Shown: positions 7,758-63,742, counted from the stretch's first letter. The stretch: 64,000 nucleotides of DNA from an uncultured Candidatus Binatia bacterium (GCA_965213675.1 OZ243916.1:1952001-2016000); one strand, 5' to 3'. The notes: generated by a model from the sequence alone, not told the origin. Numbers and translations: made by a program.

Positions 7758-7785
7758 ATGCGTAAACCGATGCGAGTGCCCCGGG

Positions 7786-9291: not shown

Positions 9292-9297
9292 CTGTCG

Positions 9298-10038
9298 CTA
9301 CCTGCCGGCCTGGCCGGTCATGCTCACCAAGGTACCGATGGGTTGGCCGCTGACCACCCTGCGTATGTTGCCCGGCTCCATGACGTTGAAGACGATGATG
9401 GGAAGCCGGTTATCCATGCAAAGGGAAATGGCGGTGGAATCCATCACCTTGAGTTCCTTGCGGAGCACCTCCATGTGGGTCAACTCGCGGAACAGCTTTG
9501 CGTCGTGATTCTTGAGCGGATCGGTGTCGTACACGCCGCGCACCTTGGTGGCCTTCAGGATCACCTCGGCGCCCACTTCCATGGCGCGCAGGCTCGCGGT
9601 CGTATCCGTCGTGAAGAAGGGGTTGCCGGTGCCACCCGCCAGAATTACCACGCGGCCCTTCTCCAGGTGCCGCACGGCGCGCCGGCGAATGTACAGTTCG
9701 GCCACCTGCCGCATCTCGATGGCCGACATCACCCGAGTCGAGACGCCGATCTTTTCGAGCGCGTCCTGCAGCGCGATGCTGTTGATGACCGTGGCGAGCA
9801 TGCCCATGTAGTCGGCGCTCGCCCGGTCGATGCCGTGTTCGCTGGCCTCGGCGCCGCGCAGGATGTTGCCGCCGCCCATGACCAGTGCGATCTCGCAACC
9901 CAGTTCGTGGACCTCCCGAATCTCCTCCACGAACCGCGCGACCGTTGCTGGATCGATGCCGTACTGGCGCTCTCCTGTAAGAACCTCCCCCGTGATCTTC
10001 AGAATGACTCGGTGGTATTTCAACTCCGCGTCCGTCAT
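9298..10038 (-). CDS. pyrH: UMP kinase
   Basis: [24 protein letters not shown]. Confidence 0.98.
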
Positions 10039-10059
10039 TCGATGGCACCCTGGTGAGGA

Positions 10060-10665
10060 CTAGTCCTTCATGCCTTCGCCAACCGAGTAGCGGACGAAGC
10101 GCCGGACACGGATGTTTTCCCCCAAGCGCGCGATGGCGTCCTGAATCAGGTCCTTGACGCGACGGGCGGGCTCCTTGATGAACGCCTGCTCCATAAGACA
10201 GGCATCCTCGTAGAAGCGCTCCATTTTACCGGCGACGATCTTGTCCAACACCGCCGCCGGCTTGTTGAGCTCGGCCGCCTGCTGCCGGTAGATGGATTTC
10301 TCCCGCTCCAACTCTTCGTCGCCGACATCCTCGCGTTGGACGTAACGCGGGTTTGCCGCGGCGACCTGCATCGAGAGGTCCTTCACCAGGGCCTGAAACT
10401 CCTCGGTCCGGGCCACGAAATCGGTCTCGCAGTTGACCTCCAGCAAAACCCCGATCTTGCTGCCGCCGTGGATGTACGCGCCCACCAATCCTTCGCTGGC
10501 CTCGCGCTCGGACTTGCGCGCCGCCAAGGCGAGCCCTTTCGCCCTCAGGTGGTCGACAGATTTTTCGAAGTCACCCTCGCACTCCAGGAGGGCCTTCTTG
10601 CAGTCCATGAAACCCGCGCCGGTCTTGTCCCGCAACTGCTTGACTACATTCGCATCGATGGCCAT
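10060..10665 (-). CDS. tsf: Elongation factor Ts (short form)
   Basis: LRDKTGAGFMDCKKAL, EVNCETDFVA. Confidence 0.97.
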   Translation of the reverse strand: MAIDANVVKQLRDKTGAGFMDCKKALLECEGDFEKSVDHLRAKGLALAARKSEREASEGLVGAYIHGGSKIGVLLEVNCETDFVARTEEFQALVKDLSMQVAAANPRYVQREDVGDEELEREKSIYRQQAAELNKPAAVLDKIVAGKMERFYEDACLMEQAFIKEPARRVKDLIQDAIARLGENIRVRRFVRYSVGEGMKD

Positions 10666-10671
10666 GCTCTC

Positions 10672-11640
10672 TCAACTCCCCGCCACGGCAGGCGCGTCCG
10701 TGGACTTCTCTGCGTCCGCATTCTCCTGAACTTTCTCGACGGGCGCTGCGGCGGGCGGTTCGGCAGTCTGGCCCGAACCCGGCGCCGATCCTGCCACGGG
10801 CGTCTGGGCTCCGGGAGACGCCGCCGGTTCCGGCGCACCTGGCGCCGCAGGCGCTTCCTCCCGTGGCGGTTCCGCGGCCGACTCGCCTTCGGCGGACTCG
10901 CCCCCCTCCGCTTCCTCGGCCCGCGCCGCCTCGGCCTCCATGCGCGCCTGGTCACCGAGAGCCTGGCCGTCCCTCACCGCTTCGGCCATGAGACTGCAGA
11001 ACAGCCGGATCGCGCGTATGGCGTCGTCGTTGCCGGGTATCCTGTAGTCCACCATGTCCGGATCGCAGTCGGTGTCGACAATGGCGATCACCTTGATGCC
11101 GAGCTTGCGCGCTTCGCGGACCGCAATGGCTTCGTGGCCCGGATCGATGATGAACACCGCGTCCGGCAGCTTCTTGATGTCCTTGATGCCGCCCAGCGCC
11201 CGCTCCAGTTTGGCGCGCTCGCGGCTGTGGGAAAGCATCTCCTTCTTGGTGAGGGCCTCGACGATCTTGGGGTCGTTGGCCATCTCCTCGAGTTTCTTGA
11301 GACGTTCGATGCTTTGCCGGACGGTCTGGAAGTTCGTCAACGTGCCTCCCAGCCAACGGTGATGAACGTAGGACATGCCGCATCGTTCGGCTTCTTCCCG
11401 CACCGAGTCCTGCGCCTGCTTCTTGGTGCCCACAAAAAGGACGTGGCCTCCAGACATAATCAGATCGCGAACGTGGGCACACACGTCCTTGACCATCTTC
11501 ACGGTCTGCTGGAGGTCGATGATGTGAATCCCGTTGCGCGCTCCGAAAATGTAGGGCTTCATCTTGGGATTCCAGCGACTGGTCTGGTGCCCGAAATGGA
11601 CCCCCGCCTCCAGAAGCTGCTTCATGGATATATCCATCAT
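10672..11640 (-). CDS. rpsB: 30S ribosomal protein S2 with an acidic Ala/Pro-rich C-terminal tail
   Basis: [28 protein letters not shown]; start placed at MMDISMKQ. Confidence 0.97.
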
Positions 11641-13390: not shown

Positions 13391-14362
13391 TTAGATACTA
13401 GGGGATGCGGCTGGCTTTGTCAAGCAGGGCACGACCGTGCAGTCGGGGCCGGCGCGGCCCAACACCCGGCGGGCCAGGACAACGTCGTCCTCGATCTGCC
13501 GGACCAGTTGGTCCACGGAAGGGAAGTCGCGCTCTTCCCTGAGTCTTTCCACGAAAAACACACGCAGCCTGCGCCCGTACAGATCGCCGTCGAAGCCCAG
13601 GATGTAGGATTCGATGGTTCGGGGTCCCGCACCGAATGTGGGGTTCACCCCCACGCTGGTGACGCTGGGCAACCGCTTTCCGCCCGTCTCGACCACGGTC
13701 GCATAGATCCCGTTGGCCGGCACGATCTCCGTTCTGCTGCGCACGTTGGCGGTGGGAAAGCCGATCTCCCGGCCCCGCTGATGCCCCCGCACCACCGTTC
13801 CCTCGATGAAATGGCTGCGCCCGAGCTGGCGGCGCGCCACCTCGACCCGGCCCTCTTCCAGCAATGCGCGTATCCGACTGCTGCTGATGGCTTGTTCCGA
13901 CTCCGCTACGGGTTCAATGACCTTCACCTCCATCCCCGCCGCCGGACCCCACTTCATGAGATCGCTGACGGTGCCGGCCCTGTCCTTGCCGAAACGAAAA
14001 TCCTCGCCGACCCATAGAACCTCGACTCCCAGCCCGGCCAGATAGTGATTGACGAATTCATGCGCCTGCACCGCGCAGAAACCCGGCGTGAAACGCTGGA
14101 TCACCACGCAATCGATGCCAACGCGCCGCAGCAGCGCCAGCTTGTCCCGGCGCGCCAGGATCAAACGCGGCGCAAACTTGGGGGCGAGGACCCTCAATGG
14201 ATGAGGCTCGAACGTCAGGACGACGGCGGACCCGCGCCGCGCCCGGGCGTCCGCCATCACCCGCCGGAGCAGATCCTGATGCCCGAGATGCACTCCGTCG
14301 AAGTTGCCGATGGTCATGACCGGACGGTGGAGGGGTCCCTTGGCGTGCCGCAGAATCTGCAT
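13391..14362 (-). CDS. ribF: Bifunctional riboflavin kinase/FAD synthetase
   Basis: GNFDGVHLGH, ISSSRIR, GFPTAN, LREERDF. Confidence 0.96.
   Translation of the reverse strand: MQILRHAKGPLHRPVMTIGNFDGVHLGHQDLLRRVMADARARRGSAVVLTFEPHPLRVLAPKFAPRLILARRDKLALLRRVGIDCVVIQRFTPGFCAVQAHEFVNHYLAGLGVEVLWVGEDFRFGKDRAGTVSDLMKWGPAAGMEVKVIEPVAESEQAISSSRIRALLEEGRVEVARRQLGRSHFIEGTVVRGHQRGREIGFPTANVRSRTEIVPANGIYATVVETGGKRLPSVTSVGVNPTFGAGPRTIESYILGFDGDLYGRRLRVFFVERLREERDFPSVDQLVRQIEDDVVLARRVLGRAGPDCTVVPCLTKPAASPSI
13395..13423 (-). promoter_or_regulatory. Sigma70 promoter for rho, inside the ribF 3' end
   Basis: TTGACA-17 bp-TAGTAT, about 190 nt upstream of the rho start. Confidence 0.7.
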
Positions 14363-14450
14363 CGTGCGTGGAGTTTGAATGGACGGCCGGACCCGCGCTG
14401 TACGGAGCCTGCGCGCACCCACAGCCGAAGGGGAATCCCGGCGGCGAGCT

Positions 14451-15347
14451 TCAAGCGCCCAGGGACCGGATCTTCTCTCGCGCCTTTCCCGCTTCCTCGG
14501 AATCGGGATACCGGTTGATGACTTCCTGGAGGATGAGTCTGGCGTCCACGCGATTTCCAAGCTCGGCAAAAGCATAGCCAATCTTGAGCCACGCCGCGGC
14601 CGCCTTGTCCCCATCGGCATACTTCTTGCGCACCACGTCAAACTCCAGGATGGCTTCGTCGAACTCCTGGAGCGCGTAATGGCTCTCACCGATCCAGTAT
14701 TGCGCGTTGTCGGTCAGGGAGCTGTCCGGATGTTTTTCGACGAACTTCTTGAACTGTTCGATGGCGCCGCGAAAGTCCCTTTCCCGCAGCCGTTTCCAGG
14801 CATTTTCGTAGTCCTGTTGAAGCGTGAGCGCGTCGGGGTCGGGGCTCGGAGCCGGGCGCCCCCTCTGCGGCGGCTCTCCGGCGCCCGCCGGCGCCGGAGA
14901 GGCTACCCCACTCGGCTCGGCGTCAGGAACGCGCTTCGGAGCGCCCTGGAGAAGCGCGTCGCGCAACAGCCGAAGCTCGTCTTCGCGCACCTTCAGGAGT
15001 TTCCGCTGCGCCCGCATTTCCGACTCGAGGGCCGCCAGTCTGCGGTCCGTTTCGGCGGCGTTCGCCGATCCCTCCCCGCCTCCGCCTCCATTACGCAGCT
15101 CCAGCAGACTGCCTTCCATCGCGTTCAAGCGGTTCTGCAGGGCGGCGACCTCCGCCCGGGTATCCGCCAGGAGGGTGCGTGTCTGCCCGAGTTCCGCCTT
15201 CAATCCGTTGATCACCGCCCACTCGCCCTCGGTCAATTGTGCCTGAACCGGAGGCGCGGGCGCCGCGTGATAATCGACGGTGCAACCCCAAGCCGACACA
15301 AGCGACAGGATCACCAAACATGTGCGGGCATGAATTCGCATGGGCAT
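14451..15347 (-). CDS. cpoB: Tol-Pal system protein YbgF/CpoB
   Basis: Lipoprotein-like signal, coiled coil, TPR with NAQYWIGESHY; directly downstream of pal. Confidence 0.9.
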   Translation of the reverse strand: MPMRIHARTCLVILSLVSAWGCTVDYHAAPAPPVQAQLTEGEWAVINGLKAELGQTRTLLADTRAEVAALQNRLNAMEGSLLELRNGGGGGEGSANAAETDRRLAALESEMRAQRKLLKVREDELRLLRDALLQGAPKRVPDAEPSGVASPAPAGAGEPPQRGRPAPSPDPDALTLQQDYENAWKRLRERDFRGAIEQFKKFVEKHPDSSLTDNAQYWIGESHYALQEFDEAILEFDVVRKKYADGDKAAAAWLKIGYAFAELGNRVDARLILQEVINRYPDSEEAGKAREKIRSLGA

Positions 15348-49258: not shown

Positions 49259-49418
49259 CACTCCCCGTGTCCTGTCCGGCGGATTCGCGCATGACAAGGT
49301 GCGGAGAAGTGTCTGCGGAGAACTGTCATCGCCGGCCAAACGCGATGACTTGCAGGAGCGACCGGCGGTCGCTTTCGCGGGCGCCGCGCGAGGAAATGCC
49401 ACGCAGCCGGCGGCGAAA

Positions 49419-50582
49419 ATGACCCGCGGACCCGCATGTGAACCCGCCGGACGGGACGCCGACTCCAAGGCGACATTCGCGCGCCGTGGGATCGTGGAAG
49501 GTTTCTTCGGCCCCCCGTGGAGCATGGCCCACCGTACGGCGATGTTCGCATTCGGCGCCGCCCGCGGCATGAACACCTACCTCTACGCACCCAAGGACGA
49601 CCCCTACCACCGGGAGCACTGGCAACTGCCCTACCCCGAGCCGGAATGGCGCGAGTTGTGCGCGCTCATCGCCGCCGCCCAGACCCACGGCATCGACTTC
49701 GTCTACGGCTTTCACCCCGGCAAGGACCTGCGCTTTGCGGATTCGGAACCGGTGGGCATTCTGCTGGACAAGGCGGCGCGCCTGTACGACCAAGGCGTGC
49801 GCACCTTCGCGGTGTTGTTCGACGACATTCCGTCTCGCCTTGCGGACGCCGGCGACGTGCAGCGGTTCGACGGCAGCCTGGCCAAGGCCGAATCCCTCTG
49901 GCTCGAAGCGGTGCTGGAGCGGCAAGCCGCGGCCTGGCAGGTGGAGTGGTGGTTCTGTCCCTCGTACTACACACCGGACCCGTTCCTGGCCAGGGTGTTC
50001 GGCGAGTTCGAGCCCGGCTTTATCGAGACCGTGGCGCGGCACCTGCCGGCAGCGGTGGCGTGCTTCTGGACCGGCCCCAAGGTGGTTTCCCGTGACATCC
50101 CGCTGGCACACGTCGACGACATCGCCCGGAGGCTGGGACACCGGCTGCTGCTGTGGGACAACTATCCCGTGAACGATCTCTACATGAAGGACGAGTTGCA
50201 CATCGGTCCCCTCACCGGACGCCATCCGCGGCTGCCGGAGCAGGCGCACGGGCACCTCGCCAACCCGCTGTTGCAGGAGGCGCTGAGCTTCGTTCCCCTT
50301 GCCACCTGCTTCGACTACGCGCGCGACCCCGGGGCCTACGATCCGGAGAAGAGTTGGGAGGCGGTCGTGGCGGAACGGTTCGGCGCCGCCAACCTGGAGC
50401 CCTGGCGGGCGCTCCGACTGTTTTGTGAACGGGACGCGGCCAGCGCCGGCGCGGCAACGTTTTCGGAGCCGGAGCGCGGCGCCCTCGCAGCCGCCCACGC
50501 CTACCTTTCGACTCACCGGAGCGAAGCGTGGCGCCGCGAGTTCGAACCGTGGCGGGAGCGGCTGGAGCGCGCGCTACACTAG
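49419..50582 (+). CDS. GH84 beta-N-acetylglucosaminidase (O-GlcNAcase) catalytic domain, no signal peptide
   Basis: GIVEGFFGPPWS, YLYAPKDDPYHR, catalytic FDDI, WTGPKV, WDNYPVND; start uncertain. Confidence 0.9.
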   Translation: MTRGPACEPAGRDADSKATFARRGIVEGFFGPPWSMAHRTAMFAFGAARGMNTYLYAPKDDPYHREHWQLPYPEPEWRELCALIAAAQTHGIDFVYGFHPGKDLRFADSEPVGILLDKAARLYDQGVRTFAVLFDDIPSRLADAGDVQRFDGSLAKAESLWLEAVLERQAAAWQVEWWFCPSYYTPDPFLARVFGEFEPGFIETVARHLPAAVACFWTGPKVVSRDIPLAHVDDIARRLGHRLLLWDNYPVNDLYMKDELHIGPLTGRHPRLPEQAHGHLANPLLQEALSFVPLATCFDYARDPGAYDPEKSWEAVVAERFGAANLEPWRALRLFCERDAASAGAATFSEPERGALAAAHAYLSTHRSEAWRREFEPWRERLERALH

Positions 50583-50608
50583 TGTGGTGTCTGGTTGATT
50601 CGCGTCAT
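50579..50608. repeat. Isolated end of the 165-bp element forming the whole GH84-senA spacer
   Basis: CTAGTGTGGTGTCTGGTTGATTCGCGTCAT, one mismatch to 35741-35770. Confidence 0.85.
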
Positions 50609-51911
50609 GGAAGACAAAACCGCATCCACCCGTGAAGTCCTGGGCACCCTGGAAGAGGTGCGCTCCCGGACCTTGGGCTTCGTTGAGGACCTGTCCGGGG
50701 AGCAACTCACGGTTCCCTTGCTGAACATCGTCAACCCCCCGCTCTGGGAGATCGGGCATGTATCCTGGTTTCACGAGCGCTGGGCGTTGCGGCATCTGCG
50801 CGGCCGCGATCCCATCATTGCCAACGGCGACGCGCTCTACGATTCCGCGGCCGTCCATCACGACACCCGCTGGGTGCTGGCGCTGCCGCCGCTTGAAGCG
50901 ACCCTCGCCTACAAGGCACGGGTCCTGCAACAGATCATCGAAGAGCTGCCCGCCCAGCGTTTGAGCCCGAAGGAAACCTACTTCCACAGGCTCGTGATCT
51001 TCCACGAGGACATGCACGCGGAGGCCATGACCTACACGCGCCAGACTCTGGGATATCCGCGGCCTCCATTCATGCGCCAACGCCAGGGCGCGGCCGGCGG
51101 TCCCTGCCCGGGCGACGTGGAGTTGCCGGGCGGCGAATTCATTCTCGGCGGCACGCCGGACCTGCCCTTCGTCTTCGACAACGAAAAATGGGGCCATCCG
51201 GTGACCGTGGCGCCCTATCGCATCGCCCGCGCTCCAGTGACGAACCTGGAGTTCGCCGCCTTCGTGGACGACAACGGCTACGGTGACTCGCGCTGGTGGA
51301 GCGACGCGGGCTGGCGCTGGCGGCAGGGCGAGGGGAGCGCCCATCCCGTCTATTGGAAACGCGAGTCTCCGGGACGGTGGCTGGAGCGGGTGTTCGATCA
51401 ATGGGGGCCGCTTCAAGCGGAGATCCCGGTGATCCACGTCAACTGGTACGAGGCCGAGGCGTATTGCCGCTGGGCCGGAAGGCGGCTGGCCACGGAGGCG
51501 GAGTGGGAGATGGCCGCGGCGGTGGACCCCGCCGGCGGCACAGATCCGGATGCCGCCAAGCGCCGCTACCCCTGGGGCGAGGTGCCGCCCGACCCCATCC
51601 ACGGCAACCTCGATTGGGCCGCTGGAGGCCGCCTGCCAGTGGACGCGCTTTCGGCGGGCGACAGCGCCGCCGGCTGCCGGCAGATGATCGGCAACGTGTG
51701 GGAGTGGACGGCCCACGCCTTCCACCCCTACCCCGGCTTCGTCCGGGACCCCTACAAGGAATACTCGGAGCCCTGGTTCGGCGACCGCAAGGTGCTGCGC
51801 GGCGGCTGCTGGGCCACCCGCTCCCACCTGATCCGCAACACCTGGCGGAACTTCTTCACCCCGGACCGCCGCGACGTGTTGGCGGGCTTCCGGACCTGCG
51901 CACGACACTAA
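50607..51911 (+). CDS. senA: Selenoneine synthase SenA-like non-heme iron enzyme (EgtB family)
   Basis: DinB-like NPPLWEIGH and HEDMHAEA, FGE-sulfatase domain (FDNEKW, GNVWEW, WRNFFTPDRRD); immediately upstream of senB. Confidence 0.85.
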   Translation: MEDKTASTREVLGTLEEVRSRTLGFVEDLSGEQLTVPLLNIVNPPLWEIGHVSWFHERWALRHLRGRDPIIANGDALYDSAAVHHDTRWVLALPPLEATLAYKARVLQQIIEELPAQRLSPKETYFHRLVIFHEDMHAEAMTYTRQTLGYPRPPFMRQRQGAAGGPCPGDVELPGGEFILGGTPDLPFVFDNEKWGHPVTVAPYRIARAPVTNLEFAAFVDDNGYGDSRWWSDAGWRWRQGEGSAHPVYWKRESPGRWLERVFDQWGPLQAEIPVIHVNWYEAEAYCRWAGRRLATEAEWEMAAAVDPAGGTDPDAAKRRYPWGEVPPDPIHGNLDWAAGGRLPVDALSAGDSAAGCRQMIGNVWEWTAHAFHPYPGFVRDPYKEYSEPWFGDRKVLRGGCWATRSHLIRNTWRNFFTPDRRDVLAGFRTCARH

Positions 51912-52050
51912 TGGCGTGGCACACGATGACGCGTGACAGGCCACGAATGTCTCGTCCTGTTCGACAACCCGGATGACAACACTTCGAACGAATTGGCCAG
52001 GACATCGGCCCATTGGATTGGACAACGAGTTGACACGAACAAGCACCGCG

Positions 52051-53007
52051 GTGGCCAGAATCGCGCTCGTGACTCCCGCTGGTCCCACCCGGCGCACCGG
52101 CAACCGGATTTCCGGGGGCCGGTGGGCGCGCATCCTGCGGGCGTCGGGATACAAGGTCACGGCCCTGGACCGCTACGAACGTGAACGCTGTGATCTGCTG
52201 ATCGCGTTGCATGCCCGGCGCAGTCATCCGTCCATCCGCCAGTTTCATGAGCGCCAGCCCGACAAGCCCATCATTGTCGTGCTGACCGGAACCGACCTGT
52301 ACCGCGACATTCACGTGGACGACGACTCCCGGGAGTCGCTGCGCTTGGCGACCCGCCTGGTGGTGCTCCAACGCAAGGGACTGGACGAACTCCAGCCGGG
52401 GCTGCACGAGAAGACCCGGGTCATCTACCAGTCCGCGCCAGCCCGTCCGGGCCATCGCCGCGACCGAAACCTGCAGTTCACGGTTACGGTGGTGGGCCAC
52501 ATGCGCCCCGAGAAAGACCCGTTCCGCACCGCCATGGCGGTGCGCTCGCTGCCCCGCACGTCCCGGATCCAGGTCACGCACATCGGCGACGCCTTCGGCG
52601 ACAGCTTCCTGCGCCGCGCCGAACGGGAAGTCGAGCACAACCCGCGCTACCGCTGGCTGGGCGACCTGCCCCACTGGAAGACGCGGCAACTCCTGGCCAA
52701 CAGCCACCTCACGTCCATCACCTCGCGCATGGAAGGCAGCTCCAATGTCCTGTGTGAAGCGCTGGCCTCCGGCGTGCCCGTGGCCGCGTCCAGGATCTCC
52801 GGTTTGATGGGAACCCTGGGCGACGACTATCCCGGCTACTACGAGATGGGCGACACCGCCGGGCTCAAGCGTCTCCTGCTGCGGGCCGAGAACGATCCGG
52901 CGTTCTATGAGAACCTGGCACGGCACTGCGCCAAGGTCGCCCCCCTGGTGAACCCGGACCGGGAGATCCTGACTTGGCAGGGGTTGGTCCGTGAAGTGAC
53001 GCGTTGA
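52051..53007 (+). CDS. senB: Selenosugar synthase SenB-like glycosyltransferase (TIGR04348 family)
   Basis: GNRISGGRW, IALHARRS, LTGTDLYRD, GHMRPEKDP, SRMEGSSNV. Confidence 0.9.
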   Translation: MARIALVTPAGPTRRTGNRISGGRWARILRASGYKVTALDRYERERCDLLIALHARRSHPSIRQFHERQPDKPIIVVLTGTDLYRDIHVDDDSRESLRLATRLVVLQRKGLDELQPGLHEKTRVIYQSAPARPGHRRDRNLQFTVTVVGHMRPEKDPFRTAMAVRSLPRTSRIQVTHIGDAFGDSFLRRAEREVEHNPRYRWLGDLPHWKTRQLLANSHLTSITSRMEGSSNVLCEALASGVPVAASRISGLMGTLGDDYPGYYEMGDTAGLKRLLLRAENDPAFYENLARHCAKVAPLVNPDREILTWQGLVREVTR

Positions 53008-54370: not shown

Positions 54371-54374
<4 letters not shown>

Positions 54375-55162
54375 TGGATCACCGTTCCTTTCCCCGCCAA
54401 CGCGTCTCGCACCGGGTGTTCCGTGCGGCCGTCGCTCATGATGACCTTTTCCGCGCCGTCCTCGAAGAGCTTGCGCAGCGCCAGCATCTTGCGCTTCATG
54501 CGCCCCTCCACCTGCCCCTCCCGCTGTTCCAGTTCACCCGCCCGGATGTGCGGCACCACGGTGCCCTCGTCGTCCTTGTCGGCGAGGAAGCCCGGCGCCT
54601 CGATGAGCTGCAGCACCACCTCGGCATGGAAGGCAGCCTGGAGCACGTTGATGATGTCGTCGTTCTCCGAGTTGATGGCGTTGTGGCGCTCGTCGATGAT
54701 GGGGATGGACAGCACCGGGGCGTAACCGCCGTCGAGCAGCAACTGGAACAGTTCCCTGTTGGCGCTCCGGGGCTTGCCCGAGAAGTCGCGTACGATGAGG
54801 GTCTTGCCGTTCTTGCGCACCCGGATGCCCTTGTTGCGCTGGCCCTGAATGGCGCGGCCATCGATGCCCGAAAGGCCCACGGCATTGACCCCATTCTGTT
54901 GCAGCAACTCCACGATGCGCTTGTTCTGAACCCCGGCGTAGCCCATCAGGATGGCGTCGAGCGCGTCTTTGTCCGACAGCACGCTGGTGTAGCCCGACAC
55001 CGACGTGACCACCTGGGTGGGGGTCCCGAGCCTGGCCGCGATGGCGTCGCGCACCGCGTTGGCGCCGTGCACCACGATGAACCGGTCGGACACGGCCGCC
55101 AGATCCCCGGCGATGCCCGGAAGGTTGATGTCGCTGCCGCCGCCGATCTTCACCAGTATCAT
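54371..55162 (-). CDS. lysZ: [LysW]-aminoadipate/glutamate kinase
   Basis: MILVKIGG, VVHGA, TSVSGYTS, GRMKRK; basic GQRNKGIRVRKNGK segment as in LysW-binding kinases. Confidence 0.9.
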
Positions 55163-55797
55163 CGAAGGTGCTCCACCGTGTCGTTGGGGATGACGCGCCA
55201 GTCGCCGCCCTCCGGCACGGTTTCCGAGCTGACGGTGAAGCCGCCCTCGTTCTCGCGGGCGCGCAGCCTGAAGTAGTCGGGTTGTTCATTGAAGAACGAC
55301 CCGACGTAGACATTCTCACCATCGGCAATGATCATGTTCATGGCGCGCACGTAGCGAGTCCTGCGGACGATGATGTCCATCCCCTTGCGCATGGCCGCGG
55401 CCATGTCGCCCTTGTCGAAGCGCTTGACGAAGTTGAACACTTTTTCCGCGCCGATGCGGCCTTCCGCGTTGATGCGAACGCCGCGCAGTTCGCCGTTGAA
55501 GGCGAACACGTAGCGATCATCGGAGAACGGCATGTTGTTTGCCACCACGATGTTCTCGTCCCGGAACGCGCTGCGGGCGTGTCCCACCAGCAGCGTGGTG
55601 GCGCCGAACTGCGTCAGGTCGTCCTCCCAGATGGGCTTGATGTTGTGATAGAACCGCCACGCGCCGTCAACCGTGTAGGCGCATCCCCAGCCGTGGCCCT
55701 GGTACTCGGGACTGTTCCGGGCGATGCCGGCCAGATGGGACAAGCGCTCGCCGATGTCGAACGGCTCCCGGCTCTTGACGCACAACAGGCGACACAT
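55159..55797 (-). CDS. Class II glutamine-amidotransferase-like Ntn hydrolase (EgtC/YafJ/Dug3-related)
   Basis: MCRLL N-terminal Cys, GHGWG, GHARSA, NMPF, FNG; ATGA overlap with lysZ. Confidence 0.85.
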   Translation of the reverse strand: MCRLLCVKSREPFDIGERLSHLAGIARNSPEYQGHGWGCAYTVDGAWRFYHNIKPIWEDDLTQFGATTLLVGHARSAFRDENIVVANNMPFSDDRYVFAFNGELRGVRINAEGRIGAEKVFNFVKRFDKGDMAAAMRKGMDIIVRRTRYVRAMNMIIADGENVYVGSFFNEQPDYFRLRARENEGGFTVSSETVPEGGDWRVIPNDTVEHLR

Positions 55798-55809: not shown

Positions 55810-56856
55810 CTAGGGGTGGAGGCCCGGGAACTCGAGGCCCTCGGTTTCCTCGAAGCCGTTCATGATGTTGAAGGCCTGGACCGCCTGCCCGGCGGCGCCC
55901 TTCATGAGGTTGTCGAGGGCGCTCAGCACCACCAGCCGGTCCGACCCCTTCTCCTTCTGGAAGCCGATGTCGCAGTAGTTGGTGCCGCTCAGCAACTTGG
56001 GCTCGGGATAGCGGTAGATGCCGTCGGCTTCCTTGACGATGCGGATGAAGGGCTCCTTGCCGTAGGCCTCGCGGTAGGTCTTCCACACGTCCTTCTCTTC
56101 CAGCGGTTCGCGCAGGAACAAATGGCACGTCGCCAGGACGCCGCGCACCATTTCGATGGAGGTGGCGGAGAAGTACACCCGGACCGGCTCGCCGAACGCC
56201 AGTTCCTGGTAGATCTCCGCGCTGTGCCGGTGCAGGGTGGGCATGAACGAACGCACGGCGCCGCTCCGTTCCGGGTGGTGGGACGCGTCGCTGGCGGCGT
56301 TGCCGCCCTCGCTGGACCCCACCTTGACCTCCACCACCGTGCGCTCGGTGTCCACCAGCCCCTTCCTGAAGAACGGATAGACGCCAAGGATCGTGGCGGT
56401 GGCGTTGCAACCGGCGCCGGTGACGAAGCTCGCCTCCCGGATCTCCTCGCGGTGCAGCTCAGGAACCCCGTAGACGAACTCCTTCAAGAGCTCCGGGCGC
56501 TGGTGCGGCTTGCCGTACCAGCGCTGGTATTCGTCCACGTCGTTGAGCCGGAAGTCCGCGCTCAGATCCACCAGCTTCGGGGCGAGATCCCGGAACGACT
56601 CGATGCGTTCCTGGGCCTGGCCGTGGGGCAGGCAGAGGAACAGCAGGTCGCACGGCTTGAGCTCGTCCATCCTGCAGAAGCGGAGCTGCGTCCGCTTGCG
56701 CAGATTGGGATGGGCCTTGAACACGAACTTGCCCGCGAAGCGCTCCGAGGTGACCTCGCACACCTCCACCCGGGGGTGCCCCAGGAGCAGCCGCAGGAGC
56801 TCGCCGCCCGTGTAGCCGGACGCCCCCACGATAGAGACCTTCAGCTTCTCGATCAC
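55810..56856 (-). CDS. lysY: [LysW]-acyl-phosphate reductase (LysY/ArgC)
   Basis: GASGYTGGELLRLL, HPNLR, DLSADFRL, GCNATA, HHPERSG, LDNLMKGAAGQA. Confidence 0.9.
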   Translation of the reverse strand: MIEKLKVSIVGASGYTGGELLRLLLGHPRVEVCEVTSERFAGKFVFKAHPNLRKRTQLRFCRMDELKPCDLLFLCLPHGQAQERIESFRDLAPKLVDLSADFRLNDVDEYQRWYGKPHQRPELLKEFVYGVPELHREEIREASFVTGAGCNATATILGVYPFFRKGLVDTERTVVEVKVGSSEGGNAASDASHHPERSGAVRSFMPTLHRHSAEIYQELAFGEPVRVYFSATSIEMVRGVLATCHLFLREPLEEKDVWKTYREAYGKEPFIRIVKEADGIYRYPEPKLLSGTNYCDIGFQKEKGSDRLVVLSALDNLMKGAAGQAVQAFNIMNGFEETEGLEFPGLHP

Positions 56857-57005
56857 TGCTCTTGCATCTCTTTCCCGTTCTTCCGGTTCCCGTCAACCCA
56901 GACAGTCTATCCCTGTCGGGCGCCCCCTAGACCGACTGCTGTTGCGGGCGGTTGCACTTGCCATTCGACAGCCTCTGTCCTCGTTCGGAACCGTGTAACG
57001 CACGG

Positions 57006-58013
57006 CTACGGCGCGGGAGCCCGCAGCTTCACAGCAGCGTTGTCGAGGAACCGCCGCAGGTTCTCGGACATTGACCTCAGAAGGACCACCGGGAACTGCG
57101 GGTAGTCGTCCGCGTGCGCAGCGGCGGTAATCAGTTGACAGGCGATCCGCAAGGTCACGATCAGACCAAACGACCAGCGCACGCACGCATCGTCGATCGG
57201 ATTTGACGGTCGATTCAAGACCGCGACCAGCGATACATCGTCGCCGATGCACTCCGCACCAAGAGCCTCGGCCAAGGCCTTCGCTGTCCTCGGAAGCCTG
57301 TCGGGGGTCGTTCGGTTCGCGTGGGCCCACAGCCTGCCGACGACCGTCGGGTTCTTCGAAGAACTCGGCCGATAACTAGTCGGATTCTTGATCGCCTCCA
57401 AAGTCCTTGCAATCCGATCCAACTCCTCGTCGATGCCTCCACCTGTCTTACTTCCGGAGAGAACTGAATCCCAAAGGCTCTGTATCCGCCGCCCGTCGAG
57501 TTGTCGCGACGCGCGCAACCGGAGCAACAGCGCCTCATCGACCTCGTAGAGAATCCGCCGCAAATCGTCGAGCCCCGACGCCGCGTGGGAGAGCATCACG
57601 GCCGCCGATCGCGAGAGATCCTCAACGTGAACCGTCGCAGCTTGTCCGGGCTTCACGGGGAACCACTCTGGCAACACGATCGGCGATGACGTGTCAGCCA
57701 AACTCAACTCCTTGCGGCTGACAATCACCAGGTCGACTCCATGCCGCTCCCGGGCGACTTCATTCTGCACTTGAATATCGTCCTTTGTGCGGCGCAGAAC
57801 CTCTGACACGTCGTTCATCACAGAGTTCGGATCGACGAAACCGCCCGTACGCAGCACATGCGGAACGATGGCAAGCTCTCCACGTAGTTGCTTCAACTCT
57901 CGCGCGACATAGTCACGATCGGTGGAGGCCCAAACCCAGAACACGTTCAACGGTCGCGATTCCCGCCGTCGCGAGACACGAATCGCCTGGACTATGGTAT
58001 CCGGTTCCAACAC
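57006..58013 (-). CDS. Hypothetical protein, partner of the STAND NTPase
   Basis: 335-aa ORF starting 15 bp after the NTPase stop, same strand and composition; no family recognised. Confidence 0.75.
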   Translation of the reverse strand: MLEPDTIVQAIRVSRRRESRPLNVFWVWASTDRDYVARELKQLRGELAIVPHVLRTGGFVDPNSVMNDVSEVLRRTKDDIQVQNEVARERHGVDLVIVSRKELSLADTSSPIVLPEWFPVKPGQAATVHVEDLSRSAAVMLSHAASGLDDLRRILYEVDEALLLRLRASRQLDGRRIQSLWDSVLSGSKTGGGIDEELDRIARTLEAIKNPTSYRPSSSKNPTVVGRLWAHANRTTPDRLPRTAKALAEALGAECIGDDVSLVAVLNRPSNPIDDACVRWSFGLIVTLRIACQLITAAAHADDYPQFPVVLLRSMSENLRRFLDNAAVKLRAPAP

Positions 58014-58028
58014 TTGTTTACCCCGCCG

Positions 58029-60449
58029 TCACGTCACCTTGGGTCGGACTGCTGCAGCGATCCGCCCGAGCGTCGGAATCCCAACACGAACCCAGTCGTC
58101 ATCGTACGACAGAAAGTTTGCCTGGGACGCCGAGCGCAGTATTTCGTTGTCGTCCGGTGGTGGCTCGCCCTGTGGAACGGGAATCCGACGCATTAGTTCC
58201 GGGAAACACGCGCGTTCCACCTTGAACCCCGTGGACCCATTGTTCGCCAATTCGCGAAGCACCCAGTACGCCGTGAACAGCCATGGGTTGTCCCGGTATC
58301 CTTGCGCCGACATCGCCTCCGCAGCCGCATACCTGAAAAAGTCATAGTCAGGACTCAGCAGAATCCTGTCAGCGTTCAGTTTGTTGTCGGCGAAGTCCGT
58401 AAAATCGCCATCCTGCACCCGCAGGCCGATTTGCGGCCGTCGTTTTTCGATGAGCCACTCCACGAACTCCCCTAGGACGTTCGCCGTTAAATACGGGTGT
58501 CCTGCCGTCTCCTCGAACAGCGCGTCTAGGAACCGTGCGGTAACTTCGATCCGGTCGGCTAGTATCTTGCGCACCAACTCCGAGAACTCACCGGTGGTCG
58601 TCTGTGGCGAGTGCTCAAACAATGGGAACGGATCCTGCTGGACATAGGGAGCGAGTTGGTTCTGATCCATGAGAATAAAATGGGCGTCCGGTTGCTGGCC
58701 CAGAAACACCAACACATTGTCGTAGGAAAACGTCATCAGTTGGTTGAGGATCGGTTGCACTACAGTGTGCCGAATACTTGGTTCCCGCTCGACAGCCGTC
58801 TTAAGTCTCCCGAATAGTGTTTCGTACTCATCGATCACTAGTACCATCCGCTTGTCTTCATCGTGGATGGGTGGTGCACACGTTGTGACCGCGTTCTCAA
58901 CGAACTTTTCGGAAATCATCTGGCCATCCGCCAGAGCCTCACACACGAGATGGTAGAACTTCATGTCGTCTGAAGATTGCGACACTCCACACGTCTGACT
59001 GACAACATTCGCATCTCCACTCGTTGAGTCCATATCAAGACAGGCCGTCGTTTTACCACTCCTTCGCACGCTACACCACAATCGTACGCCAGGCCGCCGT
59101 TCGAAGGTCCGAAGAAGGTCACGTACGCTCGTGCGGGCTACGTGAAAAACCGTGGCTCGGTTCCGAATCTGATCCTGAAGCGGGAACTGGCGTGCGAAAT
59201 TGAACGTGATCGGCGTAGTCGTGCTCCAAGTGCTACGAAGCGCCATAACCGCGGCATCCCAAACTCTGAACGCTCGGTCGGCCGATTCTTCCCGCATCTC
59301 GCCTGCGGGCACGACGATCTCCGCTAGTCCACTCTGTTCGGAGGCAATTTTCCGCACGTCCGGCTTCAACGGCGCGATCACCAGCGTCACCTGCCGGCGG
59401 ACCGCGTCATCCAGCTCTGCCGGCGAGACGAAACTGTCGTCTAGGAACGCGTTGACTTCGACAAGCCGCTGCGATGCGGCATCGCGGGGGGGCCGCACGG
59501 CCACGTCGAGCCGCCGTTCGTGCCACCTATATTGTCCGGCGACCGGAACGGGATGATAATCGTCATCCGGTCGATCATGGAACCGTTGTAGTGCGTCGAG
59601 GAGGGGAAGGACGGTCGTTCTCAGGCCGTCAACGAGAGGGCCGGGCGCCAAGCGATCGACGAGGCGGTCGGCGTGACGAGGAAGCAGAAATGCTATGTAG
59701 TGCATCCATGAACGCTGGAACCTAGGAAGAACGGCGTTCCCTGTCTGCTGTTCAAACGACACCGACGAGTAACCTTCAAGAATACCGCTCAATGCGGCCG
59801 AAACCAGCAAACGCAGCGCCGAGGTAAATCCGTGATCGGACGTGGCCGATGACCGAACGGAATAGAAGTCCAACGGCAATGCTAGAAACCGCGACAGACC
59901 GTTTAGCGACTTCCTGAGTGCTTCGTCGTGATCATGTTTAGCACGTGTGAATCTGTACCCTTGTGAGAACACATCGCGGGTATGATCGGCGAGCGGACCT
60001 GAGAGGGAACGGCCGTCGTCGTCGGACGACAGGTGACGCATCTCATCAAGGAACTGACCGAGAAATTCTGTAAGGCAATCCCGATAGAACGTGGACCACT
60101 GGAAAATGTGCTGTTCACGGAGGGCATTGAGCGCTCTCCGAAAATCCGCTGCGAGTTCCAAGAGATTCCGGGTGGAGTCCCTTGGAGCAGACCCAGCAAT
60201 CGGTATTTCAATGACCTGCGCCGTCTCAGAGTCAGAGCTTCTGGTCTTCCCCCCGAGGATTCTCAACAGGTTATTGCGGCGCTTCGGCCGAAACCGTTGA
60301 AGCAAGTTTTCGATTTCCAGGCGCCATTCGGAGAGCTCGATGTCATCCATCTGGCGAACAAGCGCCTCCAGCGCTCGCTCCGGGCGTTCAGCTTCAAGCT
60401 TGTCTAACCAACGCCTGATCTCGGTAAGACGTTCTTCAATCGTCGACAT
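58029..60449 (-). CDS. STAND-class P-loop NTPase with an unknown N-terminal region
   Basis: Walker A-like SVRRSGKTT, Walker B VLVIDEYE, GxP motif in EETAGHPY, probable C-terminal winged helix. Confidence 0.78.
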   Translation of the reverse strand: MSTIEERLTEIRRWLDKLEAERPERALEALVRQMDDIELSEWRLEIENLLQRFRPKRRNNLLRILGGKTRSSDSETAQVIEIPIAGSAPRDSTRNLLELAADFRRALNALREQHIFQWSTFYRDCLTEFLGQFLDEMRHLSSDDDGRSLSGPLADHTRDVFSQGYRFTRAKHDHDEALRKSLNGLSRFLALPLDFYSVRSSATSDHGFTSALRLLVSAALSGILEGYSSVSFEQQTGNAVLPRFQRSWMHYIAFLLPRHADRLVDRLAPGPLVDGLRTTVLPLLDALQRFHDRPDDDYHPVPVAGQYRWHERRLDVAVRPPRDAASQRLVEVNAFLDDSFVSPAELDDAVRRQVTLVIAPLKPDVRKIASEQSGLAEIVVPAGEMREESADRAFRVWDAAVMALRSTWSTTTPITFNFARQFPLQDQIRNRATVFHVARTSVRDLLRTFERRPGVRLWCSVRRSGKTTACLDMDSTSGDANVVSQTCGVSQSSDDMKFYHLVCEALADGQMISEKFVENAVTTCAPPIHDEDKRMVLVIDEYETLFGRLKTAVEREPSIRHTVVQPILNQLMTFSYDNVLVFLGQQPDAHFILMDQNQLAPYVQQDPFPLFEHSPQTTTGEFSELVRKILADRIEVTARFLDALFEETAGHPYLTANVLGEFVEWLIEKRRPQIGLRVQDGDFTDFADNKLNADRILLSPDYDFFRYAAAEAMSAQGYRDNPWLFTAYWVLRELANNGSTGFKVERACFPELMRRIPVPQGEPPPDDNEILRSASQANFLSYDDDWVRVGIPTLGRIAAAVRPKVT

Positions 60450-60929
60450 TGTTTCAAACTACCAAACTGCAAGGCCGTCACTTCCAGGCTGTCCTACACA
60501 ACCAATCCTGTCCACGTCACAGACTTACGCATCTATCGCGCAACAGGCAGGAGCGCAAAAACACATGCTCGGCAACAACTCGTGCCCTTGAATGGCCGTG
60601 ATCGACAAAAAAGTAATTACTTTGGTGCGGGTTCACTCTAGGCAATCGTACGTCGTATCGCAAGCTGACGTTCTTGCCGCCGCCGCCAACTCGCGCTCAG
60701 ACAACGTCCCGGTGCATGTCCTGATCACCCTCAATACGCGGGGCACGGACCCCTCCGGTCTCTAGGATTCTGTGCTCATTCCCACATGGGGATGACCGAT
60801 TCGTTCGGGGCGCTGAAGGTACAAACCGTTCCTTCACCACGCCACCAAGATTGGGAATGCTTGGAACGCAGCCGACGGAGCGCGCACAATGACTACATCA
60901 CAGGTAGGCATAGGCCCCGAGCCGCCGAA

Positions 60930-61805
60930 TCAGGACGCGCCCCTGCGCCCCTGTTCCTCACGGCCCGCCTTGAGCACGTGCTCCACGACCAAGCCGGGAA
61001 TGTTGACGCCGGTGGTGTCGATGCTGTTGCGGAACTCCATGGTGTAGTTGACCTCGTTGACCAGCAGGCCGCCGGGAGTTTCAAACAGGTCCACGGCGAC
61101 GATGCCGCCGCCCACGGCCCGGCCCGCGCGCACCGAAAGGTCTCGCAGTTCGTCCGTCAGCGGACAGTTCTCGGCGCGCCCGCCCCGCGCCGTGTTGGTG
61201 ATCCAGTGATCGCTGTAGCGGTAGATGGCGGCCACGCACTCGTCACCGATGACGAAGCTGCGGATGTCGCGCCCGGCTTTTTTTTCGACGTACTGCTGGA
61301 TGTAGAAGATGGAGTGATGGTAGCTGCCCAGGATCGCCTTGTGCTCCAGGATCGTCTCCGCCGCGTCGCGGTCGTTGACCTTGGCCAGCAGCCGGCCCCA
61401 GGAGCCCACCGCGGGCTTCAGCACCACCGGGTAGCCCATTTCCTCGATGGCCTGCAGAGTGGATTCCTCGGTGAAGGCGATGCGCACCTCGGGCTGCGGC
61501 ACGCCGTGCTCTTGCAGGTGCACCGAGGTGAGGATCTTGTCGCCGCACACCGTCGCCACCGACGACGCGTTCACGCAGCGCACGCCGGCGCTCTCGAACA
61601 GCCGCAGGCCGTGCAGCGCCCGTGAGTGGTTGATGCAGCGCTCCAGCAGCACGTCCAGGTCGAACTCGTCCCTGCCCAGGTTGAACGAGAGCTTCCGGTC
61701 GTCGATCATCTGAAGCTCCACGTCGGGATGCTTCCGGAACTCCTTGATGAGAAGCTTCTCCTCGGGCCGGACCAATGAGTGCAGCAGACCGATCTTCAAG
61801 CTCAT
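60930..61805 (-). CDS. lysX: Alpha-aminoadipate-LysW ligase (ATP-grasp)
   Basis: [43 protein letters not shown]; ATGA overlap with lysW. Confidence 0.93.
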
Positions 61806-61966
61806 TCCCCCCAGTCTTCCTCTTCCGAGGGCGCTTCTTCCACCGCCGGAGGATCGAGGCTCGTGACCTCCAGCTCGGTGCCGCAGTCGGCGCAGGCGAT
61901 CAACTCGCCCTCCACCGCGTCGTCCTCCAATTTGAACTCCGCTCCGCAAACCGGACACTCAACCAT
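61802..61966 (-). CDS. lysW: Amino-group carrier protein LysW (54 aa, absent from the ORF track)
   Basis: Hand translation [54 protein letters not shown]: two CxxC and the EDWGE C-terminus; GGAGG RBS. Confidence 0.97.
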
Positions 61967-62098
61967 CAGCGGATACCTCCCTCGTCAAGAACTGATCCAA
62001 TGAAGCACATCCTTCGATTTCACCTCGTTCGTCATTTCTGGCGGCGGCCACCCCCGTCAATCCTGGCCTCCCCTTCCGTCACTCCCTTCCTCCCTCCT

Positions 62099-62191
62099 GT
62101 CATTTCCGCGAAAGCGGGAATCCAGGCGGGGTGGTGGAAAGTGCTGCCCAACCCCGATCCGCTCCCGGATTCCCGCTTTCGCGGAAATGAC
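62099..62191. repeat. REP/dRS3-like inverted pair upstream of lysW
   Basis: Perfect 25-bp inverted repeat GTCATTTCCGCGAAAGCGGGAATCC at 62099-62123 and 62167-62191, with degenerate arms out to about 62030-62232. Confidence 0.85.
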
Positions 62192-62261
62192 GGGGGGAGG
62201 CGGGATTGACAGGAGGAGAGGCGGGAATGACGATACGGACGTCGGCGGATCGCTGGTGTCG

Positions 62262-63650
62262 TTACGACGGCACGGCCTTTGCAACCGTGATGATGGCGTT
62301 TCGCAAGATCCCAACGATATCGTCGATCTGCTCATTCGTGACCACCAGCGGCGGACACACCGCCAAGGCGTGAGTGCCGCATACCCTCAGCAGCAGCCCG
62401 TTGGCGAGGCACTCGTCGCAGACCTGCCGGGGCACCTGTTGCTCCGCCGCAAAGGGCTCCCTGGTCGCCTTGTCCTTGACCAGCTCCACCGCGGCGATGA
62501 GGCCCTTGCCACGCACCTGGCCCACCATGGGCAGTTCCGCCAGCGCCGCCAGTCGTTCCTGCATGTACGCGCCCACCTCCGCCGCCCGCTCCACCAGCCG
62601 CTCCCGCTCGATAATGTCCAGATTGGCCAGCGCCGCCGCGCATGCCACCGGATGTCCGGTGTAGGTAAAGCCGTGGTAGAACGCGTCGTCGGCCGTACCC
62701 AGCAATGTCTGGAAGATCTCTTCCCGGAACAGCATGGCGCCCAGCGGCAGGTAGCCGCTGGTGAGGCCTTTGGCCGTCACCAGCACGTCCGGGGTGACGC
62801 CCTCGCCCGCGCACGCAAACAGGCTCCCGGTGCGCCCGAATCCGGTGATCACCTCGTCGCAGACCATCAGGATGCCATGCCGGTGGCAAATCTCCCGGAT
62901 GCGCGCCAGCCAGCCTTGGGGCGGCACGATGACCCCGCCCACCCCCTGCACCGGCTCGGCGACGAAGGCGGCGATGCTGTCCGGGCCGTACCGCTCCACA
63001 AGCCGTTCCAGCTCGCCGGCGCAGGCGAGCTCGCAGTCCGGCCAGGTCTTGCCCAGCTCGCACCGGTAGCAGTGGGGCCGTGCCATGTGATGCACATCCG
63101 GCAGGCCCGGTTCCATCTGCCGGTTGAAGAGCGGGATGCCGGTCAACATGGCGGCGCCGCTCGACGAGCCATGATAGCCCTGGTTGAGGGTGACGAAACG
63201 CGTCCGCCCCGGTTGGCCCTGGGCCTTCCAGTAGGCCCGCACCAGCCGGATCATGCTCTCGTTGGTCTCCGAGCCGCCCGAGGTGAACATCACGCGGGTG
63301 AGCCCTTCCGGCGCCATCTCCGCAAGCCTCGAAGCCAACCGGATGGTGGGTTCCGAGGTAGGGCCGATGAGCGTGGGCGCGTAGGCGAGACGGTCCATCT
63401 GGTGCGCCACCGCGCGGGTGATCTCTTTGCGGCCATGGCCCACGTGGACGTTCCACAGGGTGGAGAGACCGTCGATGTAGCGCTTGCCGAGGGCGTCCAG
63501 GAAATAGACGCCTTCCGCGCGCACGAACACCGGCACGCCCTCCGCCTGGTGCCGCGAGAGCGGCACGAAGCCGTGGACGAGATGGTCCCGATCGGCCCGG
63601 CTCATGGCCGCGGCGCGTTCGAGATCGACGGGGTCCTGGAAGTCCATCAT
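62262..63650 (-). CDS. Class III PLP aminotransferase (omega-amine/putrescine type)
   Basis: SGGSETNE, GYHG, AEPVQGVGG, DEVITGFGRTG, AKGLTSGYLPLG, HGFTYTGHP. Confidence 0.92.
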   Translation of the reverse strand: MMDFQDPVDLERAAAMSRADRDHLVHGFVPLSRHQAEGVPVFVRAEGVYFLDALGKRYIDGLSTLWNVHVGHGRKEITRAVAHQMDRLAYAPTLIGPTSEPTIRLASRLAEMAPEGLTRVMFTSGGSETNESMIRLVRAYWKAQGQPGRTRFVTLNQGYHGSSSGAAMLTGIPLFNRQMEPGLPDVHHMARPHCYRCELGKTWPDCELACAGELERLVERYGPDSIAAFVAEPVQGVGGVIVPPQGWLARIREICHRHGILMVCDEVITGFGRTGSLFACAGEGVTPDVLVTAKGLTSGYLPLGAMLFREEIFQTLLGTADDAFYHGFTYTGHPVACAAALANLDIIERERLVERAAEVGAYMQERLAALAELPMVGQVRGKGLIAAVELVKDKATREPFAAEQQVPRQVCDECLANGLLLRVCGTHALAVCPPLVVTNEQIDDIVGILRNAIITVAKAVPS

Positions 63651-63742
63651 CCGCTCCGAAGTGTCACGTTCAATGAATCCAGCGGGCTGGAAGGACACCG
63701 CTCTCCCGATCCGTCATTCCCGCTTCCCCCACGGCCGTGGCC

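Follow-up and report, generated by a model that had tools for sequence, protein, structure and literature searches.

A foreign two-gene module with an ORC/STAND-like ATPase in a lysine operon of a Candidatus Binatia bacterium: a candidate defence system of an undescribed family

We analysed a window of 64,000 nucleotides (nt) from the genome of an uncultured Candidatus Binatia bacterium (GCA_965213675.1 OZ243916.1:1952001-2016000); the window is the whole stretch of DNA considered here, and all coordinates are counted from its start unless they carry the name of another locus. Our subject is a pair of adjacent genes, here called A and B, which a first-pass annotation made from the sequence alone had put forward as a STAND NTPase module and candidate defence or conflict system. 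Translation of the window recovers both open reading frames (ORFs) where that annotation had placed them, 806 and 335 amino acids (aa) long and 15 bp apart, and the motifs it had quoted are present in A: SVRRSGKTT at residues 460-468, IDEYE at 539-543 and GHP at 650-652. The pair is laid out as follows.

58029-60449, minus strand: gene A, 806 aa, ATG start; ORC/Cdc6-STAND-like ATPase with a family-specific N-terminal half
58014-58028, minus strand: A-B spacer, 15 nt, with a GGCGGGG Shine-Dalgarno-like run
57006-58013, minus strand: gene B, 335 aa, GTG start; obligate partner of A

Both genes are real. The database gene call for B in the source genome (P0154) has 314 aa and is thus shorter than the 335-aa reading from the GTG codon; we prefer the longer reading because its first 21 residues are conserved among homologues. 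Among the candidates scored from a database of 90% clusters, 355 relatives of A were found at E<=0.001; the 120 relatives listed are mostly full-length proteins of about 800 aa with 49-81% identity, and none of the 120 has a precomputed Pfam domain. For B, the 90% cluster database holds 119 relatives, and a HMMER search of all 1.84 billion 50%-identity cluster representatives returned 431 at E<=0.001 and 321 at E<=1e-30. The best 150 of these 431 representatives are all stand-alone proteins of 254-389 aa, with no fused forms among them.

The pair sits inside a co-oriented operon of the LysW-type aminoadipate pathway, on an insert that can be delimited by alignment to genomes of the same genus. 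Its parts and the host genes around it are these.

56885-60916, no strand assigned: insert carrying A and B, 4,032 bp, in the intergenic spacer between lysX and lysY
60450-60916, minus strand: leader, 467 bp, non-coding, upstream of A and within the insert
56885-57005, minus strand: insert tail, 121 bp, downstream of B
60930-61958, minus strand: lysX-type RimK/ATP-grasp gene of the host operon, upstream flank
55810-56856, minus strand: lysY/argC-type semialdehyde dehydrogenase gene of the host operon, downstream flank
54371-55162, co-oriented with the A-B pair: amino-acid kinase gene (lysZ-type) of the host operon
62262-63698, co-oriented with the A-B pair: class III aminotransferase gene of the host operon

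Homology to five same-genus genomes ends at 56884 and restarts at 60917, and in those five genomes only a short spacer separates lysX from lysY; therefore the pair arrived on the 4,032-bp insert. The G+C content is 0.56-0.61 across the pair and insert, against 0.65-0.69 in both flanks. Neither A nor the insert was found in any of the 40 related genomes searched (24 from the genus of the source bacterium and 16 from its order), and the source genome has one copy of A. The foreign composition on which the first-pass annotation had remarked is thus joined by a clean insertion and by absence from relatives, and the insert is of foreign origin and was horizontally acquired. At the insert ends we found no terminal inverted or direct repeats and no target duplication, and the insert region, leader included, gave no match in Rfam. 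No consensus promoters or terminators were found on the coding strand of the insert; in particular, the leader lacks a sigma-70 consensus on its minus strand. When the closest locus, L001 (73.6% nucleotide identity), is compared, similarity is limited to the two coding sequences (CDSs), and neither leader nor flanks are conserved. An autonomous transposon was considered and rejected, as the insert ends are not conserved, the flanks are unlike those of even the closest locus and the copy is single. The whole stretch is contained in four sequencing runs of one study, and no RNA run is among those listed.

Protein A divides into an all-helical N-terminal domain, a small alpha/beta domain, a P-loop nucleotide-binding domain and a helical C-terminal region, according to an AlphaFold model whose mean predicted local distance difference test score (pLDDT) is 76.9 and which is confident at residues 1-405 and 610-806.

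59565-60449, minus strand: A residues 1-295, all-helical N-terminal domain; pLDDT 85-97 for the most part, linker at 71-90 disordered
59235-59564, minus strand: A residues 296-405, small alpha/beta domain; confident model, poor conservation across the family
58623-59141, minus strand: A residues ~437-609, P-loop nucleotide-binding domain; most conserved part, pLDDT <50 at 407-478 and 585-609
59046-59072, minus strand: Walker A, SVRRSGKTT, residues 460-468; Ser replaces the first Gly
58821-58844, minus strand: Walker B, VLVIDEYE, residues 536-543
58032-58622, minus strand: A residues 610-806, helical lid, then a winged-helix-like end
58494-58502, minus strand: GHP motif, residues 650-652, in the helical lid

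Conservation was scored over 48 family members at 26-72% identity. The SVRRSGKTT, IDEYE and GHP motifs are invariant or nearly so across these 48 sequences; S460, R463, S464, G465, K466 and T467 of Walker A and D540, E541, Y542 and E543 of Walker B are invariant, and in the N-terminal domain the family-wide invariants are W118, Y122, H156 and S217. The stretches that are poorly modelled hold the most conserved residues of the family (N417, A419, F422, P423, S460, R463-T467, Q596, N597 and F608-F611), and these segments may need a nucleotide or a partner in order to become ordered.

The top Foldseek matches of A are the archaeal AAA+ structures 2fna and 2qen (probability 0.99-1.00, E 1.8e-3 to 3.1e-3), ORC/Cdc6, plant NLRs and CED-4, and a TnsC fold is also among the matches. 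The template modelling (TM) scores to 2fna and 2qen are low, having been obtained with the whole A chain, in which the P-loop region has pLDDT <50; VIA-align places residues 610-806 on the AAA+ lids of DnaA and the clamp loaders. The definition of STAND proteins that we used is reportedly that of Leipe et al. 2004. By that definition A has the P-loop core with Walker A and Walker B and the GxP lid followed by a winged helix, and it has no TPR, WD40 or LRR sensor at its C-terminus. None of the curated STAND families, NB-ARC and NACHT included, matches A at E<=1 or any of 13 diverse A members at E<=0.05, and the sole sequence-level match is AAA_22, which stays below its cut-off (E 0.058 in A and 3.6e-4 in one relative). 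The assignment of A to a STAND/ORC-like class, proposed earlier from its motifs, is thus borne out both by the 48 aligned sequences and by fold, and so is the absence of C-terminal sensor repeats, as A ends at the winged helix and matches no repeat family in Pfam. From these motifs and the modelled fold we take A to be an ATP-dependent switch of the ORC/Cdc6-STAND type, and its C-terminal winged helix suggests DNA binding.

Protein B, which is modelled well throughout (pLDDT 93.8, predicted TM score 0.88), has two parts.

57600-58013, minus strand: B residues 1-138, five-stranded alpha/beta domain; resembles P-loop/Rossmann-like nucleotide-binding folds
57009-57599, minus strand: B residues 139-335, helical bundle; R215 and H300 invariant, R268 and Q293 conserved

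The best structural matches of residues 1-138 are all weak and are to nucleotide-binding folds, DEAH helicase domains among them. The loop at the P-loop position reads G-D-R-D in the consensus, and B therefore lacks a Walker A motif. Across 57 sequences at 23-70% identity only S110, P115, W117, R215 and H300 are invariant; residues 109-119 form an SSPxxLPxWFP motif, and the arginines that are invariant or nearly so are R215, R33 and R268. HEPN nucleases carry the motif Rx4-6H on a four-helix bundle, and the C-terminal bundle of B does not show this pattern. A complex prediction for A residues 296-806 with B gave a score of 0.00, which speaks neither for nor against binding.

Neither protein has a usable match in Pfam (2025), NCBIfam (2026), PADLOC-DB or PHROGs. 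In PADLOC-DB 2.0.0, a release of 2023 whose scope ends before later systems, no family matches A or B at E<=1, and Pfam searches with 24 diverse family members (13 of them of A) returned nothing usable. Sequence searches of the PDB with the A and B profiles and with the C-terminal 377 aa of A gave noise only, the ESM Atlas held no usable match for B or for A residues 1-410, and a Foldseek search of the BFVD viral structures was uninformative (best E 2.5e-3). Searches by the accessions of Klebsiella homologues (see below) and by keywords for two-gene STAND defence found no published description of the pair. The A-B pair is thus a family absent from the libraries searched, in keeping with the earlier statement that it matches no named system. 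The N-terminal region of A without family match, put at about 430 aa in the first-pass annotation, spans about 405 aa here. For an active ATPase joined by an inactive nucleotide-binding-like partner there are published precedents, BrxC-BrxB and nSTAND2, which that annotation had not named.

To the pair in the window, genome scans added 22 loci and metagenome scans 55. A locus was counted as testable for pairing if it contained the 3' end of A and at least 300 bp downstream, and profile hidden Markov models (HMMs) of both families were used. B begins 2-65 nt after A, measured between HMM envelopes, in 67 of the 68 testable loci; the sole exception is L010, where A is internally deleted. When the flanking ORFs were clustered, A and B were the only families common across loci. 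That B is a dedicated partner of A, as first supposed from a single locus, is therefore confirmed by the co-occurrence of the homologues.

Full-length copies in named records come from Acidobacteriota (Vicinamibacterales), Gemmatimonadota (Longimicrobiales, Palauibacter), Pseudomonadota (Gamma- and Alphaproteobacteria) and Actinomycetota (Streptomyces, Spirillospora), so that the family spans at least four phyla; a fragment of the cassette was also found in a metagenome-assembled genome (MAG) of a spirochaete. A 29%-identical pair (801 and 334 aa, annotated as hypothetical) is present on two conjugative IncFII/IncR Klebsiella plasmids, where it lies between IS6 and IS110 elements, away from repA, and one MAG holds two copies of the cassette, 71% and 57% identical to the query. 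Five Vicinamibacterales (L005, L006, L008, L012 and L016; about 8001-11410 in each) have the cassette filling the gap between ileS and lspA-lgt-rluD. At this shared site IleS is 88.5-92.7% identical between species, A 71-98% and B 63-95%; the cassette therefore changes more quickly than its flanks, by divergence or by exchange, and within it B outpaces A. Copies that are decayed or interrupted occur at L007, L009 and L011 (inserted ORFs or insertion sequences, IS), L010 (deletion) and L012 (frameshift). In L007 (9598-10731) and L009 (10347-12146) gene A is split by inserted ORFs of 378 and 600 aa without a Pfam match, perhaps insertion elements of an uncharacterised kind; an IS with an rve integrase splits gene B in L011.

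To describe the genomic neighbourhoods we used 30 non-redundant loci with flanks, 14 from genomes (one of which stands for the five syntenic Vicinamibacterales) and 16 from metagenomes, and recorded as a neighbour any PADLOC match at E<=1e-8 within 6 kb. Left out were near-duplicates (L005, L008, L012, L016, L031, L032, L041, L055, L065, L068, L070 and L071), three loci on grounds of size (L039, L053 and L079), the broken L010, L014, L019 and L022, the plasmid L024 and short contigs. Among the metagenome loci 8 of 16 had a PADLOC neighbour, and among the genome loci 3 of 14; one of these last three matches is a false positive from an ABC transporter, so that 10 of the 30 loci retain a PADLOC neighbour. 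Complete or specific named defence systems adjoin five of the 30 (binomial P ~1e-3, a rough figure at an assumed background of 2.6%). The neighbourhoods of note are as follows; the first five are those with named systems, and the rest show other mobile or defence-linked genes.

L064: Lamassu LmuA/B/C
L073: Gabija GajA/B and PD-T7-1
L030: type IIG restriction-modification enzyme
L061: GajB, AbiU and PDC-S14; the element also carries ParA and ArdC-primase
L021: GmrSD-type restriction enzyme, adjoining an NB-ARC-TPR protein and an integrase
L072: Tn7-like TnsA/TnsB element with an SMC-like ATPase
L004: two integrases, a PLD nuclease and AAA_16
L045: caspase-TPR protein (6547-9297) and CorA-like protein (13565-15064), both matching PADLOC models; an IS110 transposase also flanks the cassette
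L017 and L035: PIN genes

The carriers of the pair include plasmids, transposons and integrative elements. In three lineages (L040/41, L053 and L054/55) the gene immediately after B is a conserved one for an NYN nuclease; these genes (L040:2922-4232, L041:4286-5752, L053:4953-6428 and L054:13570-15084) encode proteins of 437-505 aa that are 47-67% identical to one another. In those NYN loci for which upstream sequence is available, positions 2-89 of the A profile have a second match, set apart from the main one and lying just upstream of it.

Other features were observed in the window around the insertion site. A 212-aa class II glutamine-amidotransferase-like ORF (55159-55797, minus strand) is among the genes of the LysW-type operon, lies between its lysY-type and lysZ-type genes and is conserved in same-genus genomes. 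Between lysX and the aminotransferase gene, a segment of about 200 bp (62045-62256) aligns with the loci of relatives in both orientations and is therefore an inverted-repeat element conserved in the genus. At 50595-51911 (plus strand) a protein with DinB_2 and FGE-sulfatase domains has an EgtB-like architecture; its gene has as neighbours a beta-N-acetylglucosaminidase (49299-50582) and a GT4 glycosyltransferase (51973-53007).

Among described systems the BREX proteins BrxC and BrxB offer a close parallel in design. Two papers (PMC13326643, PMC12839542) describe BrxB as STAND-like but inactive; bound to the AAA+ domain of BrxC, it takes the position of the neighbouring protomer, gives an arginine, R182, to the ATP bound by BrxC and blocks further BrxC assembly. 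In both cases the gene of an active winged-helix ORC/STAND-type ATPase adjoins that of a small, fast-evolving partner whose alpha/beta domain is without Walker motifs, and where BrxB donates an arginine to the ATP site B likewise has the invariant or near-invariant R215, R33 and R268. The proteins nevertheless differ: A, of 806 aa, is extended N-terminally, whereas BrxC, of 1200-1300 aa, has C-terminal domains and a coiled coil, and B has a helical bundle of 200 residues that BrxB lacks. The pair gave no match to PF08747 or DUF499 in Pfam or PADLOC, no PglZ, PglX, BrxA or BrxL was found near it in the window, and no third gene is common across loci. Since the profile tests of B against BrxB are negative (the values are given below), the likeness to BrxC-BrxB is one of analogy and not of membership.

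The second parallel is nSTAND2, for which Kaur, Iyer, Burroughs and Aravind 2021 (PMC8195603) predict a mobile operon of two genes that pairs an active STAND protein with an eroded one, the inactive partner having about 300-320 aa and a C-terminal module of GT4 or HEPN effectors, often HEPN. The A-B pair is similarly a mobile two-gene operon in which an active STAND-type NTPase is accompanied by a partner with eroded NTP-binding motifs. However, the nSTAND2 proteins are recognisable paralogues whereas A and B are not, neither GT4 nor HEPN was detected in B by Pfam, and the motifs seen in the nSTAND2 alignment, judged by eye, are unlike those of A or B. The A-B pair would thus work like BrxC-BrxB or nSTAND2 at most, by analogy, and is not a member of either.

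Other comparisons concern the switch. The archaeal structures 2fna (SSO1545) and 2qen (PAB2304) are what we take to be 'Walker-type' AAA+ ATPases of the Pfam ATPase_2/Arch_ATPase type; these proteins have about 350 aa, lack the 405-residue N-terminal region and a dedicated partner, and give no HMM-level match to A. With Avs, bNACHT and the NLR/Apaf-1/CED-4 proteins A shares the module of P-loop, GxP lid and winged helix, and horizontal mobility, but it is without their C-terminal TPR, WD40 or LRR sensor, without a recognised N-terminal effector and without an NB-ARC, NACHT or Avs HMM match, and, unlike them, the A-B system is split over two genes.

Taken together, these observations suggest that the pair is a horizontally mobile, self-contained conflict module, most likely a candidate anti-phage or anti-plasmid defence system of an undescribed family, a reading to which we give a probability of about 0.55. 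It is the best reading because of the foreign origin of the pair, its obligate pairing, the ORC/STAND switch, the mobile carriage, the defence neighbours, the rapid divergence and the frequent decay. The evidence on the other side is substantial. No recognisable effector domain was found in A or B in Pfam, PADLOC, NCBIfam or PHROGs, and no homologue of either in a phage collection or in IMG/VR viral contigs. The Walker A region of A is modelled with pLDDT <50 although the variable N-terminal half is modelled confidently. Profile comparisons of B were negative as well: as a homologue of BrxB, B was rejected by hhalign against a five-sequence BrxB alignment (probability 0.15%), and paralogy of A and B was rejected likewise (probability 0.13%), the only aligned stretch being two conserved aromatic-Pro motifs and not significant. 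The association with defence islands, which the first-pass annotation had proposed to test for the homologues, is partial: a third of the loci have PADLOC neighbours, but 20 of the 30 have none, and many copies stand alone in housekeeping operons (lys here, ileS|lspA in five genomes, tolB-pal at L050 and tkt-pyk at L078). In the clade of sponge- and coral-associated MAGs nearest to the source copy, plausible defence neighbours occur at 2 of 14 loci. Moreover, the PADLOC threshold is unspecific, as generic kinase and ABC ATPase matches arose under it, and the loci entered in the binomial calculation are related, non-random and length-selected and were set against an assumed background.

Three other explanations of the pair have to be weighed against a defence role. 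It might be a selfish addiction or toxin-antitoxin-like module, made of a latent toxin and its neutraliser and kept since loss is harmful, without a dedicated anti-phage role. Such a module would also have a strict two-gene operon with a short spacer, a patchy and mobile distribution with plasmids included, and single copies in housekeeping operons without other mobile genes, and PIN toxin genes do adjoin two loci; yet A and B greatly exceed the usual size of toxin-antitoxin pairs, such pairs do not feature an invariant ATPase switch, and neither protein matches a toxin or antitoxin family in Pfam or PADLOC. Strong addiction is also hard to square with the many decayed or interrupted copies whose host genomes persist. 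We regard this explanation as unlikely.

The pair might also serve the DNA transactions of a mobile element, with A as an ORC/DnaA/TnsC-like initiator or loader and B as a helper for a plasmid, an integrative and conjugative element or a transposon, the chromosomal copies being remnants. We regard this too as unlikely: the insert here consists of the two genes alone, without repeats, iterons or terminal repeats, at ileS|lspA the two CDSs fill the entire gap, and the plasmid-borne pair is cargo, flanked by IS elements and distant from repA. Nor is there a sign of proliferation, since the source genome has a single copy and the one MAG with two copies has distant ones (71% and 57% identical to the query). 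The case for it lies in A, which has ORC/Cdc6, DnaA, clamp-loader and TnsC folds among its matches, a C-terminal winged helix suggestive of DNA binding and, as its only sequence-level hint, the weak AAA_22 match, and in carriage on conjugative plasmids, on the element with ParA and ArdC-primase and on a Tn7-like element. Far less probable is a host role, in which a regulatory or chaperone-type ATPase and its adaptor would serve a neighbouring metabolic operon such as that for lysine biosynthesis; co-orientation with the lys operon here and with ileS-lspA elsewhere would agree with it, but in none of the 40 relatives searched, which retain this lys operon, was the pair found, its neighbours vary by locus and its composition is foreign, so that this explanation is largely refuted by distribution.

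If the pair is a defence system, then the physical binding of A to B, the part that senses and the part that acts can be proposed as follows. B, a nucleotide-binding-like alpha/beta domain with its P-loop lost, joined to a helical bundle and bearing the invariant polar residues S110, R215 and H300, would dock on the ATPase domain of A and limit or direct the ATP-dependent assembly of A, by analogy with BrxB-BrxC and with the predicted active/inactive STAND pairs. The fast-evolving parts, B and A residues 296-405, would recognise a cue from the invader, and the output would come from a conserved, as yet unrecognised surface or active site in the N-terminal domain of A or in the bundle of B, which the NYN nuclease appended in one clade might supplement. 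A bolder form of this proposal, which we advance tentatively, is that the pair represents a new two-component immune family, with an ORC/STAND-like ATPase under the control of a pseudo-nucleotide-binding partner unrelated to it in sequence. Such a family would be an independent reinvention of the BrxC-BrxB logic with a new effector fold (A W118, Y122, H156 and S217, or a Ser-Arg-His site in B), compact enough to function alone in housekeeping operons.

If the pair does protect cells, it would be a compact defence system of 3.4 kb, represented by hundreds of 50%-identity clusters in at least four phyla, whose carriers include sponge and coral symbionts, soil actinomycetes and clinical Klebsiella plasmids. 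The combination of an active ORC/STAND-type ATPase and a degenerate nucleotide-binding-like partner, so far known from BREX and predicted for nSTAND2, would then be a recurrent design. The clean insertions of single cassettes into operons provide natural pairs of strains with and without the module, and the unmatched N-terminal domain of A and the partner B could reveal new sensing or effector chemistry.

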